Of a stretch of 64,000 nucleotides of DNA, positions 1-8,200 are shown piece by piece. The number at the start of each line of letters is the position of its first letter. Position 1 is the first letter of the stretch. The position numbers and the translations under genes are program-made. This DNA is from an uncultured Candidatus Binatia bacterium (GTDB taxonomy: Bacteria; Desulfobacterota; Binatia; UBA9968; JAJDTQ01): assembly GCA_965213675.1 (NCBI GenBank), contig OZ243916.1, forward strand, positions 1,152,001 through 1,216,000, in the 5' to 3' direction. The notes below the pieces were generated by a model. That model searched no databases. It was not told where the DNA came from and saw nothing but the letters and a program-made list of their open reading frames with translations.

Positions 1-1375
1 GATCGTGTCCCTTCTCCACGGTGGCCCGGCGGATGAGGTCACTCATGTGCGCGTTGGCAATGCGGTAGATGCCGCGGGCGGCCTCGGTCACGCTCATGCC
101 CAGGGGCGCGGCGATTCGCCGCTCCACGGCCTCGAGGGCGGCAGCGCGGTCCAGGCGCATGCGCCCGCCCAGGAAATAGTCGGGGTTGAGATAGCCAAGG
201 ACGACGTCGGCGTCGGAAACCGTGGGCTCGACCCCGCCGAGTCCGTAGCACACCGGCCCCGGACTGGCGCCGGCGCCCTCCGGGCCGACCTTGAGGAGGC
301 CCGTGTCGCCGTCGATCCAGGCGATGCTGCCGCCGCCGGCTCCCACGGACTCCACCCATATCTTGGGCGCCAGAACGCGGTGGCGCAGCACCACCGGCGT
401 ATAGTCCCGCTCGATGCGCCCCTCGCGCACCACTCCCACCTTGAACGTGGTGCCGCCCATGTCCGTCGCCAGGATGTCATCCTCGCCGATCAGTTCGCCC
501 AGGAAGCGGCTCCCCACCACGCCCGACGCAGGACCGGATTCCACCGTGCCCACCGCGTTGCGGCAGGTGGCCTCGATGTCGAGCACGCCGCCGTAGGCCT
601 GCATGATCATCGGCGGCTTCGCCAATCCCCTGCTTCGGAGCACTTGGTGGAGATTCAGGAGGTAGGCGGAGATGCGCGGGCCGATGTAGGCATTGAACAC
701 CGTGGTGGCGGTGCGCTCGTACTCGCCCACGAAAGGCGCCGCCGCGCTGGAAAGGGTCACGTAGACACCCGGATGACGCCGCTTGAGGATGTCCGCCACG
801 GCCTTCTCGTGGACGTCGTTGGCGGGGGACCAGAGCAGGCACACGGCCACCGACTCCACCCCACGCCCCACCAGTTCGTCCAACGCCGCTTCGGCCTGCA
901 CCTCGTCGAGGCGCACGGTGACCGCGCCCTTGTAGTCCATGCGCTCGTTCACCTCGGCCACCAGGGAGCGGGGCACGAAGGGCTCGGGCTTGCGCAGCCA
1001 CGCCAGCCGTCCCGCCTCGGTCTCGGTGAGACCGTCGGTAACCTTGCCGCGCATCATGAGCAGCGTGTCCGGGAAGCCCCGGGTGACGACGAGGCCGGTC
1101 CTCGGACCCGCGCGGGTGATCAGGGTGTTCTCGCCGATGGTGCAGGCATGGAGAAACAGGGTGGTCTGCCGGAGGACGTCCTCTTCGCCGCCAAGGCCCA
1201 TGTTGCGCGCCGCGTCCCGCACCGCGTCGGTGGCGCCGCTGGAGTAGTCCGGCGGCGTGGACAGCGACTTCCCCACCACCAACTCGCCCAAGTGGTTGAC
1301 CACGACGCAGTCGGTGAAGGTGCCGCCGATGTCCACGCCGACCAGGTATCGGCCTCGGGAGTCACCCATTACCAT
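1..1375 (-). CDS. Hydantoinase/oxoprolinase family protein (HyuA / acetone carboxylase beta-like), 3' end runs off the window
   Basis: Read manually on the minus strand: MVMGDSRGRYLVGVDIGGTFTDCVVV...HACTIGENTLITRAGPRTGLVVTRGFPD. Missing from the ORF track because no stop lies in the window. Confidence 0.9.
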   Translation of the reverse strand, partial: MVMGDSRGRYLVGVDIGGTFTDCVVVNHLGELVVGKSLSTPPDYSSGATDAVRDAARNMGLGGEEDVLRQTTLFLHACTIGENTLITRAGPRTGLVVTRGFPDTLLMMRGKVTDGLTETEAGRLAWLRKPEPFVPRSLVAEVNERMDYKGAVTVRLDEVQAEAALDELVGRGVESVAVCLLWSPANDVHEKAVADILKRRHPGVYVTLSSAAAPFVGEYERTATTVFNAYIGPRISAYLLNLHQVLRSRGLAKPPMIMQAYGGVLDIEATCRNAVGTVESGPASGVVGSRFLGELIGEDDILATDMGGTTFKVGVVREGRIERDYTPVVLRHRVLAPKIWVESVGAGGGSIAWIDGDTGLLKVGPEGAGASPGPVCYGLGGVEPTVSDADVVLGYLNPDYFLGGRMRLDRAAALEAVERRIAAPLGMSVTEAARGIYRIANAHMSDLIRRATVEKGHD

Positions 1376-1376
1376 A

Positions 1377-1504
1377 TTCAGGCCGACGGCTGCCCCGCGT
1401 TCCAATCGAGCATCACCTCGTGACGCGACGCCGCCGGGGTGCCGTCGAGATGGACTGTCGGAACCTCGGCCTGGAATCTCGCCCTTCTGACTTCGCGCTC
1501 CGGG
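1377..1504. repeat. 128-bp direct repeat, copy 1 (3' end of the CmcJ-like gene)
   Basis: Matches 19632-19759 with 3 mismatches by manual alignment. Confidence 0.95.
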
Positions 1505-2307
1505 TCGTCCTCGCGGAAGACCGCGACGACGCGCGCCTCCACCGATCGACGCAACGGCGCGTCCTCCCGGGTCGTTGGATCCTTGAAGGCGGAATGAAAC
1601 GTCATCCTGCGATTCGGCTCCTCCCGGCGCGAATCATACTGCACGAAGATCAGCGCCTCGTCCGGCGTCATGCGCGGAAAGTAGTACCAGCACTGACCGT
1701 GACTGTGGACAAGGCGGTAGTCCACCAACAGCGTTGGCGGTTCGGTCCGTCGCATACTGTCGGCGCAAACCATGTCGGTGCGGGATACGGTGGCGCCGTC
1801 GCAAAGGGCCAGCGGCATGAACTCTATTTCCCGTTCCGGATCGATGCTGCGCCAGACGTTGAACAGGCCGAAATGCCGCCCTTCCGGCACATCCACAACG
1901 TCCTCGATGTAGGGGGTCACGTCGCCGTGGGCCGGCAGTCCATAGGCGCCCTTGGGGGTTCCATCCCTGAACTCGTGTTGCATGACCTCCGCGGTCAGGC
2001 ATCCGGTCGCCGCTTTGACGAGGTTCGAACAATATTCGTAGAAGCGCGTCTTGACGAGATCCCTGTTGGAGAAATCCATGCGAATGGGAGCTTCGACCAA
2101 CTGGAAGCCCCGGTCATCGAGACTCGGAGCCTGCTTGAGCGCGCGGGCGTCATGGACCCGGACCGGCTTGCGAAGAAACATCCGCCGCCTCTCATCCAGA
2201 TCGGGGGTTTGCTCGAACCCCAGGCGCTTGCCGCGATACTTCGGGTTTACAAAGATCGTGTCGGAGATTACCGAGGGCGCGTCTGCCAGGGCCGGGATTC
2301 GTCTCAT
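1378..2307 (-). CDS. CmcJ/NvfI/AsaB-family non-heme Fe oxidoreductase
   Basis: Motifs AHGD (HxD), FNVWRSI, MPLALCDG, WYYFPRMTPDEAL..QYDS, FHSAF, RRSVEAR. Starts 21 nt after the NHLM transporter stop, with a GGAG RBS. Confidence 0.8.
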   Translation of the reverse strand: MRRIPALADAPSVISDTIFVNPKYRGKRLGFEQTPDLDERRRMFLRKPVRVHDARALKQAPSLDDRGFQLVEAPIRMDFSNRDLVKTRFYEYCSNLVKAATGCLTAEVMQHEFRDGTPKGAYGLPAHGDVTPYIEDVVDVPEGRHFGLFNVWRSIDPEREIEFMPLALCDGATVSRTDMVCADSMRRTEPPTLLVDYRLVHSHGQCWYYFPRMTPDEALIFVQYDSRREEPNRRMTFHSAFKDPTTREDAPLRRSVEARVVAVFREDDPEREVRRARFQAEVPTVHLDGTPAASRHEVMLDWNAGQPSA

Positions 2308-2328
2308 GCTTCCATCTCCGGGTTGATC

Positions 2329-5289
2329 TCAAGCCATTTGCCGCGATGCAAGGTCGCGGAACGGACCGTCCACGTTGAACAGCTCGTCGAAACGGCCGAC
2401 CTGCACCACGCGGCCGCCTTTCAGCACGTAGATCCGATCCGCCCTGCGGATGGTGGACAGCCGGTGGGCAATGACGAAACGGGTGCTGGTGGATTCCTCG
2501 ACGGCCTTCATCGTCTGCGCCTGGCTCTTGGTGTCGAGCCAGCTCGTGGGCTCGTCGAGGAAGACGATGCGCGGGTTCCGCACCAGCGCGGCGGCGAGGC
2601 CGATGCGCTGACCCTGACCACCCGAGAACGTCGCCGCGTTCTCGCCCACCGTGGTGTAGAGCCCCATCGGCATGTTGCGGATGTCCTGGTCGACGGCAGC
2701 CAGACGGGCGGCGCGCCATGCATCGACCGTGGTCAAATCGTTGCCGACGCCGACGATGTTGGTGAGGATGGTGCCGGCCTGGAGCGAGCCGTTCTGCATG
2801 ACCACGCCGATCTGCCGCCGCACGGCGCCGACGTCCAGGTGGGCCAGGTCCTGACCATCGTAGTACACCGCGCCCGACGACGGCTTCTCCAGTCCCAGCG
2901 CAAGCCGGAACACCGTGCTCTTGCCGGTGCCCGATTCGCCCACCACCGCGACGAACTCGCCGGGCTTCGCGTGAATCGACACCTCTTGCAGTATCCTGGG
3001 GCTGCCCTCGGAATAACTGAAGCTCACCTTGTCGAGGACGACCTCCCCTTCGAGTGTCGGCCGGATGCCGCGTCGGGCTCCGGCGTCCACCGGGCTCGCC
3101 AGTATCGGAAGCACCTGCTCGCATGCCGGCTTGACGAATGCCACGGCCCTGGCCGAATTGCCCAACATCACGATGGACAGGCAAAAGACCATGGCCGCGA
3201 TGTGGACGGCCACAAAGCCCGCCGCCGGGAGTCCACCGGGGCCTTGCGACGCCACCACCGCGAACAGGACGGCGCTGGCCAGCGCGGGCACCCCGGCGCT
3301 GAAGGCGGTGAGGCGTTCGCCGAGGACGGCTATCCGGATCTCCGCCTGCTTGTGTTCCCGGTAGCGCTTCGCCCATGCGGCGAAAGCCGAGTCTTCCGCG
3401 CCGGTGGCGCGCAGCTTGGCGATGCCGTTCAGGAACTGGTGCATGTCACCGGCGAGTTGGCGCGCCGTTTCGAGGTGGCGCCGCTGCGGTTCGACATTGA
3501 GGATGCAAAAGACGGCCGTGGCGCCGAGCACGACCATGCCCAGAAGCACCATGGCCCAGCCCAGCGCCGCGCTGTGGTAGAACAGCAGCCCGAAGGCCGG
3601 CAGCACGAACAACGTCGACAACACCGCGTCGGCCGTGACTCCGGCGACATTATCCCTGATTTCCTGGAAGACCATGGACCGCGCCACGAGCTCGCCCGCG
3701 GTGAAGCGGCGAAAGAAGGCCGGTGGCAGGCGCAGCAGACGGTCCCATACCGTCGAGACGAGCCGCGCGGCCAGACGTCCCTCCAGACGCATGAGCGCGG
3801 TGCCGCGGAGGACATGCGCCGCCGCCGCCACGAAGGCCAGCCCCACCAGAACGGCCGAGAACTGAATCAGCGCGGCCGCGTCGCCCGCGGGGATCACCCG
3901 GTCGACCAGCAGGTCGACGGCCACGGCCGGCGCGAGACTCAGCAAACCGGCGCCGAGGCCCGCGGCCACGAGACGGCCGGTCTCGGTGGCGGCCTTTGTG
4001 CCGCCAACACGGAACAACTCGCGCAGTCCGGCGGCGCCCTCGGCGTGGAGCCTGGGATAAAGCAGGCGAGCGTCGCGGAGCTCGTGGGTCGTCTCGGCGC
4101 TGGCGGGTGTGGACTCACCGGTCACCGGATCCACCACGCGGTACCGCCCCGCCCGGCCGGGCAGCAGGACGACAGGGCGGTCATCGTCGCGCCGAAAGGC
4201 CAGCAGCGCGCCGCTGTCCCCCAGGTACCAACGGTCCTCCTCCAACAGCCGGATACGGCGTTCACGCACTCCCGACGCCTCGCAGTAATCGCGCAGCGAC
4301 GGTTCCGCCCCGGCACCGGCGGCCGGGGTACTGAATCGGATGCCTTCGTGCTGTCCGATGATCCGCAATGCGTTCCCGAGGGCCGTACCGTCCAACGACG
4401 TCTCGTCACCCGCGTCAGACAAGCTCGACAGGTTCCGCCTGGCCAAGGCCTTGTCGTGGCGGCGCTGCGAAGCCTGCGCCACCTGCAGATTGGCGTCGTC
4501 GACCCGCAACAGCCGCCGGTGGATGGACTCGGCGCCGAGAACCAACCGATGAAATTCCGGCAAGGCTGAGGTCAGCAGCGTGGCGATGTCGATCTCGCCC
4601 GTGGACACCCCGGTAATGTCCGTGGCCGAATGCAACCTGAGCCAGGTATCCCGGGTCAGGGGCATCATGCCGGGGCCGTCCCTCCCCCCGGTGTCCGCCA
4701 GATCGAGGAAGGTAGCGTGGAGGTCGTCGGCCACAACCCAGACCACGCCGCGCTCGGCCGACACGATGCCGCTGCCCGCCGCACCTCCGGGAAGAAGCCG
4801 GTGCTCGGTTCGAGGATGCTCCTCCATTTCGCGAACCACGGCGGCGCCCAGGTCCTCGATCCAGGCATCGACCTGCGCGCGCAACGCGCACGAGAGCCGG
4901 TCGGCGTCGTCGCTCCGCTGCGCCGCGTCCAGCAACCGGTGGAGTGACAGGCAACGCAAGGAGGACCCTTGCAGTCCCTTCGCGATCAATTTCAGGGAAT
5001 CGGCGGCCGCGCCGGCGGCGAACGCCAGCCGGCCCTGCTCCAGACGCACCACATGCCTGAAGGGCGACTGCATCCGGTCATCGGCGTACTCTGCCGCCAG
5101 AACGTCGATGGCCCCTCGTTCGACGAACCAGACGACGCCGGCGTCCTGCAGGTGGATCGGGCGGCTTGCGGCGGCTTCCCGTGGCTCGCCGAACGCCGCG
5201 GCGAACTCGGCCAGCACGTCCCTCGGTTGTTCGTCATTCGCCACGAAGCAGCTCGTGATAGAAGGTGCCGGCGGCGTGGAGCTCGTCAT
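2329..5289 (-). CDS. NHLP/NHLM bacteriocin system ABC transporter, permease/ATP-binding (no active peptidase)
   Basis: N-terminal cNMP-like region, TM domain, Walker A GESGTGKS, FSGGQ, LDEPTSWLD, IAHRLST. Confidence 0.9.
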   Translation of the reverse strand: MTSSTPPAPSITSCFVANDEQPRDVLAEFAAAFGEPREAAASRPIHLQDAGVVWFVERGAIDVLAAEYADDRMQSPFRHVVRLEQGRLAFAAGAAADSLKLIAKGLQGSSLRCLSLHRLLDAAQRSDDADRLSCALRAQVDAWIEDLGAAVVREMEEHPRTEHRLLPGGAAGSGIVSAERGVVWVVADDLHATFLDLADTGGRDGPGMMPLTRDTWLRLHSATDITGVSTGEIDIATLLTSALPEFHRLVLGAESIHRRLLRVDDANLQVAQASQRRHDKALARRNLSSLSDAGDETSLDGTALGNALRIIGQHEGIRFSTPAAGAGAEPSLRDYCEASGVRERRIRLLEEDRWYLGDSGALLAFRRDDDRPVVLLPGRAGRYRVVDPVTGESTPASAETTHELRDARLLYPRLHAEGAAGLRELFRVGGTKAATETGRLVAAGLGAGLLSLAPAVAVDLLVDRVIPAGDAAALIQFSAVLVGLAFVAAAAHVLRGTALMRLEGRLAARLVSTVWDRLLRLPPAFFRRFTAGELVARSMVFQEIRDNVAGVTADAVLSTLFVLPAFGLLFYHSAALGWAMVLLGMVVLGATAVFCILNVEPQRRHLETARQLAGDMHQFLNGIAKLRATGAEDSAFAAWAKRYREHKQAEIRIAVLGERLTAFSAGVPALASAVLFAVVASQGPGGLPAAGFVAVHIAAMVFCLSIVMLGNSARAVAFVKPACEQVLPILASPVDAGARRGIRPTLEGEVVLDKVSFSYSEGSPRILQEVSIHAKPGEFVAVVGESGTGKSTVFRLALGLEKPSSGAVYYDGQDLAHLDVGAVRRQIGVVMQNGSLQAGTILTNIVGVGNDLTTVDAWRAARLAAVDQDIRNMPMGLYTTVGENAATFSGGQGQRIGLAAALVRNPRIVFLDEPTSWLDTKSQAQTMKAVEESTSTRFVIAHRLSTIRRADRIYVLKGGRVVQVGRFDELFNVDGPFRDLASRQMA

Positions 5290-7453
5290 GCGTTCCCTGC
5301 TCCACGATGCGGCCCTTGTCGACGACGATGATCCGGTCGGCGTCGCGGATGGTGCTCAGCCGATGCGCGATGATCAGACACGAGCATCCGCGACGCCGGA
5401 TTCGATCGTCGATGAGCAACTCGGTTACGGGGTCGAGGGCGCTGGTGGCTTCATCGAGGATCAGCAGCGACGGGTTGTTGACCAGCGCCCGGGCGATTTC
5501 CAGGCGCATGCGCTGTCCGCCGCTGAAGTTGCGTCCTCCCTCTTCCACCATGGACTCGTAGCCCGCCGGGCGGCCGATGATGTCCTCATGAACCGCGGCG
5601 TCGCGGGCCGCGGCGGTCACATGGTGATCCGGTATCGTCGCGGTCCACATGGTGAGGTTGTTGCGTATGGTCGTGGCGAACAGGACCGCATGCTGATCGA
5701 CCATGGAGACGGACCGGCAGAATACCTCCCGCGGGATATCAACTTGCGGGTGGCCGTCGAAGAGCACTTCCCCGGACCAGGGCCGATGCAGACCCGCCGC
5801 CAGAAGCGCCAATGTGGACTTGCCCGAACCGCTGGGCCCCACCACCGCGACGCGCTGGCCGGGTTCGATGGTCAGGTTGAAGTCCTCGACGAGCGGCGCA
5901 CGGTTCCGCTGGAAACCGAACGTGACGCCCCGCATCTCCAATCGTCCGACCAGCCGCAGCCGGCCGTCGAGCGTCATAACCCGCTGTTGCGAGTCGGCGG
6001 CATGGTCGGGATAGGACATCTCCTGCGGCGCATTGAGCACGTCGTCCATCCTTGCCATGTCCGCCTCCAGCGTCTCCAGCAGATCGGAGAACTGAGAGAC
6101 ACGGGCCACGGGACCCAGAAAATTACCGGCGAGAACGTAGAATCCCATCAACTCGCCAAGGGTCATGTCGCCCGACATCGTGCGCCAGCCGCCGAGGCCG
6201 AACACCGCCGCCGCCGCGAGTATCTGAAACAGTTGCGGCAGCGCCGCGGCCACATGACCGAGCTCCACGAACGCCTGCCGCGCGCCCAGCTCACGGGCCT
6301 GTCTGCCACTCCACAGCGAGAAGAAATCGGCCTCGCGGGCGGTTGCCTGCAAGGTCTCGATCATCTTGACGCCTGCCGTGCCCACCCCGAACGATATGCC
6401 CTGCTCGCGCCGCAGTCGATGGTTCTTGTCCCGGCGGAGGCGGGTCAGCACCTGTATCGACGCGACGCTGGCAACTCCCAAACCCCCAACCACAAGCGCC
6501 AGCCAGACATCGTATGCCACCATGACGACCAGAAAGGTCACGCTCATGATGAGATCGACGGACAGCCGCACCATCTGACCGGCTCCGGTGTCGGCGATCT
6601 GGTCGATGGTCCGCATGCGCAACGCCAGGTCTCCGGCCAGCCGGTGGGCGAAGAACCGCATGGGAAGCCGAAGCAAACGATCCAGGAAGTAGTCTGATTG
6701 GTTTATGGCAAGCCGGACGATGAGCTCGCGCAGGGAACGCATCTGGAGCCAGGTCAACAGGCAGATCAGCACGCTGGCGGCGAACATCGCCGCGATCAGC
6801 GCCCTGCTCTGACCCATCTGCTGATCCTGAAAAACGCGATCCACGAATTCCGCAAGCAATACCGGCGGCGCCAGCAAGGTCACGGCAAGGAGCAGGCCGT
6901 AGACGGCGGTGCGGGTCAGGAGGGAGCGATGGCCTCGCAACCACGGCCACAGGCGGCGCGCGACACCCGGCCGCGCCCCGCCGGGCTGAAACGCGGGGCC
7001 CGGCTCGAGCATCAGGCCGACGCCCGTAAACTCCTGACCGAAGTCACGCGCGTCGACCACGCGATGACCTTCGGCGGGATCATTCAGATAGTAGCGCCCG
7101 TGTGCGATGCCCTCCAGGACCACGAAGTGCCTGAATCCCCAATACAGGACCATCGGCTTCGGCAGCTTGGCCAGGCCATGGACCTGGCTGCTCCAGCCGG
7201 TGGCCTTCAGGCCGTATTTCCTGGCGGCGATGGCGATGTCTTCGAGGGTCGAACCGTCACGCCCGACTCCGCAGTCGTCACGCAGAACTTCCAGAGGCAC
7301 CCTGCGCCCGAAATGGGCGAGCACGGCGCCAAGGCATGCCGCGCCGCAGTCGGCCGCCTCCAACTGCATGAACAAGGGTGTGCGGCGCGGTCTCCGCCGG
7401 CGACCGCGCGTCACGGGAGCAGCGGAGAATTTCGATTCGGCAGGATCAGCCAT
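5234..7453 (-). CDS. NHLP/NHLM bacteriocin export ABC transporter with C39 peptidase domain
   Basis: QLEAADCGAACL (catalytic Cys), HFVV, NDP; Walker A GPSGSGKS; FSGGQ; LDEATSALD. Confidence 0.93.
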   Translation of the reverse strand: MADPAESKFSAAPVTRGRRRRPRRTPLFMQLEAADCGAACLGAVLAHFGRRVPLEVLRDDCGVGRDGSTLEDIAIAARKYGLKATGWSSQVHGLAKLPKPMVLYWGFRHFVVLEGIAHGRYYLNDPAEGHRVVDARDFGQEFTGVGLMLEPGPAFQPGGARPGVARRLWPWLRGHRSLLTRTAVYGLLLAVTLLAPPVLLAEFVDRVFQDQQMGQSRALIAAMFAASVLICLLTWLQMRSLRELIVRLAINQSDYFLDRLLRLPMRFFAHRLAGDLALRMRTIDQIADTGAGQMVRLSVDLIMSVTFLVVMVAYDVWLALVVGGLGVASVASIQVLTRLRRDKNHRLRREQGISFGVGTAGVKMIETLQATAREADFFSLWSGRQARELGARQAFVELGHVAAALPQLFQILAAAAVFGLGGWRTMSGDMTLGELMGFYVLAGNFLGPVARVSQFSDLLETLEADMARMDDVLNAPQEMSYPDHAADSQQRVMTLDGRLRLVGRLEMRGVTFGFQRNRAPLVEDFNLTIEPGQRVAVVGPSGSGKSTLALLAAGLHRPWSGEVLFDGHPQVDIPREVFCRSVSMVDQHAVLFATTIRNNLTMWTATIPDHHVTAAARDAAVHEDIIGRPAGYESMVEEGGRNFSGGQRMRLEIARALVNNPSLLILDEATSALDPVTELLIDDRIRRRGCSCLIIAHRLSTIRDADRIIVVDKGRIVEQGTHDELHAAGTFYHELLRGE

Positions 7454-7460
7454 GCGGGGC

Positions 7461-7631
7461 TTACAGCCACAACGTAACTGCGGCCCATGCCACGAGCATC
7501 AGCAACGGGACCAGAAGCGCCGCCACGAAAACGCGCTCATGCGGCGCCGTCACGCGCAACAGGTCGTCCAGCGCCTCGGGCTGCGCGCTGCGGATGAGCG
7601 CTTCCTGGCGGTAAACGGAGCGGGCCGGCAT
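7461..7631 (-). CDS. 56-aa membrane protein resembling only the N-terminus of NHLM secretion (HlyD-type) proteins
   Basis: Manual translation MPARSVYRQEALIRSAQPEALDDLLRVTAPHERVFVAALLVPLLMLVAWAAVTLWL*. Matches the FRxxAL...PEQLD.LL.VT.P pattern plus one TM helix; below the ORF-track size cutoff. Confidence 0.7.
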   Translation of the reverse strand: MPARSVYRQEALIRSAQPEALDDLLRVTAPHERVFVAALLVPLLMLVAWAAVTLWL

Positions 7632-7647
7632 CAGGCAAGGAAGGGGT

Positions 7648-7673
7648 GGGCGGCGCGTCTACCCGCGCCGCCC
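7648..7673 (-). terminator. GC-rich stem-loop just downstream of the precursor gene
   Basis: GGGCGGCGCG-TCTACC-CGCGCCGCCC, perfect 10-bp stem, no U-tract. Confidence 0.55.
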
Positions 7674-7695
7674 CTCATTGAACCGGTCTAAGCGA

Positions 7696-7956
7696 TTACC
7701 AAAGAGCGCTCCAGGAACCACCGGCGACCGCGCGCATTTCTTCGTCCGAGAGAGCACCCCCGGCCGGCGGCAGGACCAGATGAAAGTCCGTGGCGCTCTC
7801 TTCGTGAACGTGGACGGTCAGGTCCTCCGGCATGGCCAACCCCGTGGCTTGCTCAATGGCCTTCCTCGGATCTTCCAGGAGCATGGCACGGAATGCTTCG
7901 TCCTCCTCCGCCTTCCCTCGCACGAGAGCCTCGACCTCTGGTGAAGAATTTGCCAT
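7696..7956 (-). CDS. NHLP-leader (proteusin-type) RiPP precursor; core SWSALW
   Basis: MANSSPEVEALVRGKAEEDEAFRAMLLEDPRKAIEQATGLAMPEDLTVHVHEESATDFHLVLP...LSDEEMRAVAGG|SWSALW; GGAGG RBS before ATG 7956. Confidence 0.92.
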   Translation of the reverse strand: MANSSPEVEALVRGKAEEDEAFRAMLLEDPRKAIEQATGLAMPEDLTVHVHEESATDFHLVLPPAGGALSDEEMRAVAGGSWSALW

Positions 7957-8200
7957 TGAATCCTCCTTTACGTTCGCCGTTAGATGTGAATTTCCAGGCC
8001 TCGGCTTCGCCCGCGGCCGCTCCAGCACGGTCGCCGAACCGGCGCTGAAGGCCCACCTCAGCACGGGACCCACTGATACACGCACCGCTTGCGAGAGTCA
8101 AGGCAGCCTGCGACCGACGGCGCGCCCATGGTGGCAAGGGCGACGGTGAGCGGCTATAGGAACAGGGGACCGAACTGCTTAACCCTGAGGGTTTCGTGCA

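Follow-up and report, generated by a model that had tools for sequence, protein, structure and literature searches.

An oxygenase gene near the left end of the window, the 64,000-nt stretch of uncultured Candidatus Binatia DNA analysed here, shows conserved co-localisation with an NHLP-leader RiPP precursor gene and its exporter. The best overall explanation, which we regard as likely, is that the clade to which this enzyme belongs has become fixed in an NHLP RiPP cluster, where it would modify the precursor core, at the C-terminal Trp rather than at any other one site.

The genes of the cluster lie on the minus strand in the order precursor, HlyD stub, C39 ABC exporter, second ABC subunit and oxygenase, with a halogenase gene diverging from them. 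The NHLP-leader precursor (P0002, 7696-7956, minus strand, 86 aa) scores 66.6 bits against TIGR03793, has an AGGAGG 5 nt before its ATG, and consists of a leader ending in AVAGG followed by the core SWSALW. It is followed by a 56-aa stub ORF (7461-7631, minus strand) whose likeness to the NHLM HlyD adaptor is confined to the N-terminal portion of the latter, cytoplasmic and transmembrane, by an NHLP export ABC transporter with an N-terminal C39 peptidase (ABC1, 5234-7453, minus strand; TIGR03796, 854.4 bits against a cut-off of 853.3), and by an NHLP bacteriocin export ABC permease/ATPase subunit (ABC2, 2329-5289, minus strand), which at 668 bits stays just below the equivalog cut-off of TIGR03797 (709). 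The divergent gene (P0003, 8201-9475, plus strand) encodes a SrpI-like flavin-dependent Trp halogenase of PF04820 with GRGTAG, K84 and WIFVIP. A hydantoinase/caprolactamase-like gene flanks the cluster on the left, and TRAP transporter genes on the right.

The oxygenase (P0001, 1378-2307, minus strand, 309 aa) matches the NCBIfam model NF041278, “CmcJ/NvfI family oxidoreductase”, with 169.5 bits (cut-off 80; E 1e-49; model positions 30-263 of 263); a Pfam-A scan gave no match, and the precomputed labels on its homologues are PF27522. The predicted Fe ligands H127 (codon 1927-1929) and D129 (1921-1923), which form the triplet H127-G-D129, and H238 (1594-1596) are intact, as are R253 (1549-1551) and R259, and all five residues are invariant in the 52 aligned subfamily members. 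In the subfamily profile, the HxD, H and RES..R stretch aligns with H-C-D, H and R-E-S..R of NvfI, and the 2-oxoglutarate ligand is assigned here simply to a conserved Arg, be it R253 or R259. R55, Q110, R114, Y122, Q205, W207, R234 and R274 are also invariant and, in addition, specific to the subfamily. The AF2 model (pLDDT 91.2, pTM 0.90) has the double-stranded beta-helix fold seen in NvfI and CTB9, which are its only strong Foldseek matches (NvfI: E 8e-21, TMq 0.68, TMt 0.75-0.79; CTB9: E 1e-18); the next tier consists of other 2-OG enzymes at E ~5e-4 and TM 0.35. By sequence and predicted structure, then, the protein is a CmcJ/NvfI-family Fe(II)/2-oxoglutarate enzyme with a predicted intact active site. 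The initial annotation had placed it in the CmcJ/NvfI/AsaB family, an assignment now confirmed by both the HMM and the NvfI-like fold, and the HxD...H...R motifs that it reported as intact have been located residue by residue and aligned to those of NvfI. Its description of the gene start holds as well: 21 nt separate the ABC2 stop codon (TGA, 2329-2331) from the oxygenase ATG (2305-2307), and within this gap a GGAGA ribosome-binding site (2315-2319, minus strand) is placed 7 nt 5′ of the ATG.

The structurally characterised enzymes that share family and fold with the oxygenase are NvfI, the fungal novofumigatonin endoperoxidase (PDB 7de2, 7emz; profile E 3e-27), and CTB9, the 2-OG dioxygenase of cercosporin formation (PDB 7eus-7euu; profile E 6e-19), with TM values from 0.66 to 0.79 over the two. 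The resemblance is nevertheless distant, with only 20-27% identity, and both are fungal enzymes that act on a meroterpenoid or a perylenequinone, whereas the oxygenase is bacterial and sits in an operon-like RiPP cluster. CmcJ, the cephamycin pathway hydroxylase that gives NF041278 its name and is likened to the oxygenase here through the family model and its description, is bacterial and tailors a peptide-derived antibiotic; its substrate, however, is a small beta-lactam and not a leader-bound peptide of the kind proposed for the oxygenase. Enzymes of the CmcJ/NvfI type carry out unusual oxidations of small molecules, such as the formation of endoperoxides and methylenedioxy groups.

Close homologues with usable flanks were obtained for 19 loci in 14 genomes, at 44-94% identity. 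Apart from the window, these are L092 in the same genome, L001 (counted twice) and L091 in a near-identical Binatia MAG, L002 in a Rhodobacter-labelled MAG, L003 in an Alteromonadaceae-labelled MAG, L090 in a member of the Poriferihabitaceae, and L095-L105, which are 11 loci from nine further genomes of the Poriferihabitaceae order. An NHLP precursor was found by tblastn within 10 kb of the oxygenase in 18 of the 19 loci, which should not be taken as independent samples, since many of them are kin or recent transfers. The case named in the initial annotation as speaking against a RiPP role, in which the closest homologues are never found near NHLP genes, is contradicted by this count. At the remaining locus, L103, no precursor was seen in its 18 kb; the complete L101 cluster is about 11 kb away. 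The order NHLP precursor, stub, ABC1, ABC2 and oxygenase is found in the window, L001, L090, L095, L096 and L098-L102, and the distance from ABC2 to the oxygenase on the same strand, 21 nt in the window, is less than about 60 nt in 8 of the 10 ABC-containing loci among L095-L102, L104 and L105. Seven oxygenase/precursor pairs obtained from protein searches list longest contigs of equal size. At the other extreme, L091 and L092 carry minimal sets of three genes, namely precursor, halogenase and oxygenase.

The L092 set (L092:8323-11882; G000:C1:1226322-1229882) is the second in this genome and lies about 10 kb past the right end of the window. A canonical Trp halogenase gene accompanies an NHLP precursor with the core IGDINTW and a decayed piece of a precursor gene; the second oxygenase copy shares 56% identity with that of the window, and transporter genes are lacking. 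L001, from the near-identical Binatia MAG, has this trio with the first oxygenase as its immediate neighbour on one side and the hydantoinase-like gene on the other. The proteins of the L092 trio are 92-94% identical to those of the L090 cluster from the Poriferihabitaceae (Gammaproteobacteria), indicating that the trio was recently transferred between phyla, as one partner belongs to the Binatota and the other is a gammaproteobacterium. The L090 cluster carries a fragment of an IS1595 transposase.

The 18 oxygenase-linked cores have 5-8 residues, the last of which is W in 16 cases and Y in two, with no other position conserved. They comprise SWSALW (two), IGDIHTW or IGDINTW (five), FAPGGDSW (three), and SISDIDTW, FSGQAW, FAPTDDSY, YAPSNGNW, YYSDSW, YLPANGNY, GSDMGGW and FGQGW. 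Database precursors with the same leader type likewise end in W or Y in 41 of 42 cases, the single exception ending in WG. Some cores, such as GMPPSW and GSDMGGW, contain a single aromatic residue. The initial annotation had suggested that a Trp of the peptide is hydroxylated or cross-linked; a Trp target agrees with the cores, whose sole conserved feature is a W, or in some relatives a Y, at the C-terminus, while the cross-link lacks a conserved partner residue. The terminal W or Y could also be conserved for the sake of the halogenase, the prenyltransferase or the exporter, and not of the oxygenase. On these grounds of gene context and core comparison, we consider it likely that the oxygenase tailors the precursor peptide, and give about even chances to the terminal aromatic residue being the site at which it does so.

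In the proposed sequence of events, the oxygenase would bind the leader-bound 86-aa precursor in the cytoplasm, before C39 cleavage and export, and its Fe(IV)-oxo species would oxidise the short core, SWSALW in the window. The likeliest site would be C-beta or C-alpha of the C-terminal Trp, and the same Trp would be expected to be brominated by the adjacent SrpI-like halogenase, after which the C39 domain would cut behind the GG of the leader and the ABC pair would export the hexapeptide. The outcome might be hydroxylation through OH rebound at C-beta or C-alpha, or decarboxylation-assisted desaturation to a C-terminal enamide, and we regard these two outcomes as comparably likely. For the latter, the plant Fe/2OG enzyme ZjuDC, as described in PMC12871766, oxidatively decarboxylates the C-terminal Tyr of a RiPP, and the same source gives small-molecule precedents for decarboxylation-assisted desaturation on tyrosine isonitrile. 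The analogy with ZjuDC, which is hypothetical and concerns function and not family, is that an Fe/2OG enzyme has as its target the aromatic residue at the C-terminus of a ribosomal peptide, as is proposed for the oxygenase; ZjuDC differs in being a plant enzyme and, in the description given there, in working on a macrocycle after proteolysis (PMC12871766).

By this analogy the oxygenase might be a C-terminal oxidative decarboxylase, which would abstract a beta-hydrogen from the terminal (bromo)Trp or Tyr and, with loss of CO2, leave an indolyl- or hydroxystyryl-enamide, a proposal that we put forward tentatively. A role for the free carboxylate fits the cores, because W or Y is strictly terminal in all 18 neighbouring cores and in 41 of the 42 database precursors; the same strictness is explained equally well by substrate recognition alone. 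If true, the proposal would supply a bacterial counterpart of the ZjuDC reaction from another enzyme family. It could also provide a biosynthetic source for orphan marine peptides with dehydrotryptamine- or dehydrotyramine-type ends, of which the halocyamines and celenamides are examples.

The oxygenase might instead tailor the precursor elsewhere, at a non-terminal residue, in the backbone or in the leader, for instance by hydroxylating Ser, Asp or Pro or the residue after GG. Many cores in this cluster family do contain Asp, Ser or Pro, and other RiPP Fe/2OG enzymes, such as CinX and PoyI, hydroxylate internal residues. We nonetheless consider a non-terminal site improbable, given that across the 11 oxygenase-linked core types only the terminal W or Y is conserved, and no internal position or residue.

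The enzymes that accompany the oxygenase bear on the preferred reading, in which the terminal aromatic residue is the target. The oxygenase is the constant enzyme of these clusters, while its partners vary and include halogenases of two lineages, a methyltransferase and a protein like ABBA prenyltransferases. The SrpI-like halogenase is present in the window and in L001, a canonical Trp halogenase (PF04820, 569 bits) in seven loci, and a SAM methyltransferase in five loci, with a weak match in a sixth. A conserved protein of 330-390 aa occurs in 11 loci (L002:11004-12074 and L003:6317-7474, both on the minus strand, and nine more) and, among clusters that lack a halogenase, accompanies the oxygenase more often than any other partner. 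Scans of this protein against Pfam and NCBIfam returned no match; its predicted structure (pLDDT 82.5) has as top matches exclusively ABBA aromatic prenyltransferases with Trp or Tyr as substrate (PriB, 5- and 6-DMATS, DMATS1 and IptA; E 1e-5, TM ~0.5), and weak language-model leads agree with them. The modelled likeness suggests that such clusters make prenylated peptides ending in Trp or Tyr. Each variable partner thus belongs to a kind of enzyme by which aromatic side chains are decorated, and all of them point to an aromatic target of the cluster. A link between the methyltransferase and Tyr-ending cores was entertained and dropped, as clusters with FAPGGDSW also have the methyltransferase.

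The halogenase also invites comparison with srp clusters, which are those of sponge-derived RiPP proteusins. The peptide brominase SrpI has Lys84 as its catalytic residue in the account of PMC10858898, and, as described there and in PMC12615548, it adds bromine to the Trp at the C-terminus of cores that follow NHLP leaders and have 5-7 residues; SWSALW, a short core on an NHLP leader with Trp at its C-terminus, fits such a substrate. Like srp clusters, the window has a C39 ABC exporter pair and an NHLP precursor with a short Trp-ending core, together with a halogenase that carries K84 and is called SrpI-like on the strength of this residue and of its 74% identity to the homologue in an LCCCW cluster. 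Unlike srp clusters, the interval 1378-9475 has no YcaO gene, and there is no Cys in the core, so that it departs from LCCCW. A further difference is the CmcJ/NvfI-type oxygenase itself, of which there is no copy near the canonical srp-type cluster of the same genome. That cluster (G000:C1:58000-81000; L093, L094), whose precursor ends in AG-LCCCW, encodes a fusion of a YcaO/SagD cyclodehydratase with a leader-binding domain, an ABBA prenyltransferase-like protein, ABC1 and ABC2, a HlyD stub and the halogenase homologous to P0003, as well as a 433-aa protein that starts with an NHLP leader domain.

Outside the close clade the picture is different. A word-indexed search returned about 60 clusters at 47-95% identity, followed by a drop to 34% or less, and in a full HMMER scan the clade condenses to what is essentially a single 50% representative (57% identity, 368 bits), behind which the matches tail off gradually; the family as a whole numbers 2760 representatives at E≤1e-3, and 20 at E≤1e-30. 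Neither NHLP genes nor halogenases were found by tblastn near oxygenase relatives in any of 80 metagenome loci, of which 77 are at 38% identity or less and the other three (L010-L012) are close relatives on contigs of 1.3-3.7 kb with no visible neighbours. Similarly, none of the 32 ORFs neighbouring four relatives at 36-38% identity and L012 is RiPP-related. In a FastTree phylogeny of 19 oxygenases, the non-RiPP relative L013 is placed inside the clade on a long branch and is not cleanly set apart from it. The distribution of the clade is patchy: it was found in one of 301 sampled genomes of the class to which the window belongs, in none of 21 other genomes of the same genus, and, for the Poriferihabitaceae order, in 10 of 201. 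Its members come from Binatota, Gammaproteobacteria and Alphaproteobacteria-labelled MAGs, and the record names point to sponge symbionts. The genome of the window has three further CmcJ/NvfI-family genes (G000:C1:1114855-1115646, 1253289-1254074 and 1520829-1521614; L005-L007), which score about 300 bits against NF041278 and are about 30% identical to the window oxygenase; no NHLP gene, halogenase or exporter was seen within their 3.7-kb loci.

These three canonical copies elsewhere in the genome, together with the large size of the family and the non-RiPP contexts of its other members, would be in keeping with an oxygenase that acts on a small molecule or a free amino acid, and is either a mere conserved neighbour of the precursor or the supplier of a building block or cofactor. 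All characterised relatives are, moreover, small-molecule enzymes, as the NvfI and CTB9 structures illustrate, and CmcJ is a small-molecule enzyme too. What makes this quite improbable in our judgement is the persistence of the linkage to the precursor in 18 of 19 loci from Binatota, Gammaproteobacteria and Alphaproteobacteria-labelled MAGs, which is maintained despite rearrangements and is kept even in the minimal three-gene sets of L091 and L092; small-molecule pathway genes are, in addition, not conserved beside the close clade. The branch that includes the window oxygenase is therefore, judging from its gene neighbourhoods, probably one of peptide-modifying enzymes.

That the oxygenase has no catalytic role, and serves as an immunity protein, a chaperone or a leader-binding accessory, is very improbable indeed: nothing specific favours it beyond a predicted complex that weakly suggests binding, and the facial triad and the Arg residues, unchanged in every one of the 52 members, argue for retained catalysis. 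The predicted complex of oxygenase and precursor has a median score of 0.36 (0.34, 0.36 and 0.39 in individual runs) versus 0.00 for the best of three controls, a value in the weak score band, and the runs agree in at least 56% of contacts with a partner pLDDT of at least 75. In the calibration, the mark was reached by 116 of 157 solved complexes and by 2 of 215 mismatches; scores of 0.60 or lower comprise only 18 of the 157 solved complexes together with both passing mismatches, and the complex is not counted as evidence here.

We also looked at transcription across the cluster. No terminator-like site was found between ABC2 and the oxygenase in a promoter/terminator scan, which yields no more sites than shuffled sequences do. 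One run of a polyA RNA library (X1) contains seven short contigs matching the oxygenase, ABC2, ABC1 and the halogenase, with parts of these genes lacking cover, and none of the seven spans the ABC2-oxygenase junction at 2307-2329; X6 provides no such contigs. The likeness of these contigs to the window is only 90-99%, indicating that they derive from a relative, and carry-over of DNA into the library is possible.

A RiPP role would be new for the CmcJ/NvfI family, as the initial annotation had supposed, and this view stands within the reach of full-text literature searches (subscription literature being outside their scope), in which no report of the family in a RiPP pathway was found. The cupin-4 enzymes with NHLP domains in a survey of sponge metagenomes, as presented in PMC9426513, belong to a different family. 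If the clade is dedicated to leader-bound peptides, it would constitute a new enzyme family for RiPP tailoring, embedded in a compact family of RiPPs that spreads between phyla and combines W/Y-ending cores of 5-8 residues with brominase, prenyltransferase-like and methyltransferase partners that can replace one another. Such tiny peptides and such minimal gene sets, reduced to three genes in one variant, make the chemistry directly testable in E. coli, and the oxygenase clusters are a good lead for genome mining: they could tie brominated or prenylated indole products of sponges to genes, or yield a biocatalyst for peptide C-termini.

A few features of the locus deserve separate mention. The hydantoinase/caprolactamase-alpha-like gene (2-1375, minus strand) has its likely ATG 2 nt past the oxygenase stop codon (TGA-AT-ATG, 1373-1380), so that the oxygenase is not necessarily the end of the presumed operon, and read-through or coupling from the oxygenase into this gene is possible. 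As a member of the cluster it was rejected, since it is absent beside the oxygenase in other lineages; in L101, a relative with 30% identity lies 4 kb away. Between the precursor stop codon and the stub ORF there is a 10-bp all-GC hairpin (7648-7673, minus strand), which may act as an attenuator setting the ratio of precursor to enzymes, and whose folding energy is ordinary for its G+C content (z -1.58 versus shuffles, not significant). The stub itself corresponds to no more than the first ~50 residues of the NHLM HlyD adaptor (TIGR03794, of which the srp-cluster copy at L093:18465-19034 covers positions 6-56 of 421 with E 2.9e-8). By tblastn, a stub match is found upstream of or beside ABC1 in all 14 related loci with an exporter pair (L001-L003, L090, L095-L102, L104 and L105), so that a truncated HlyD adaptor seems to be the rule in oxygenase clusters.
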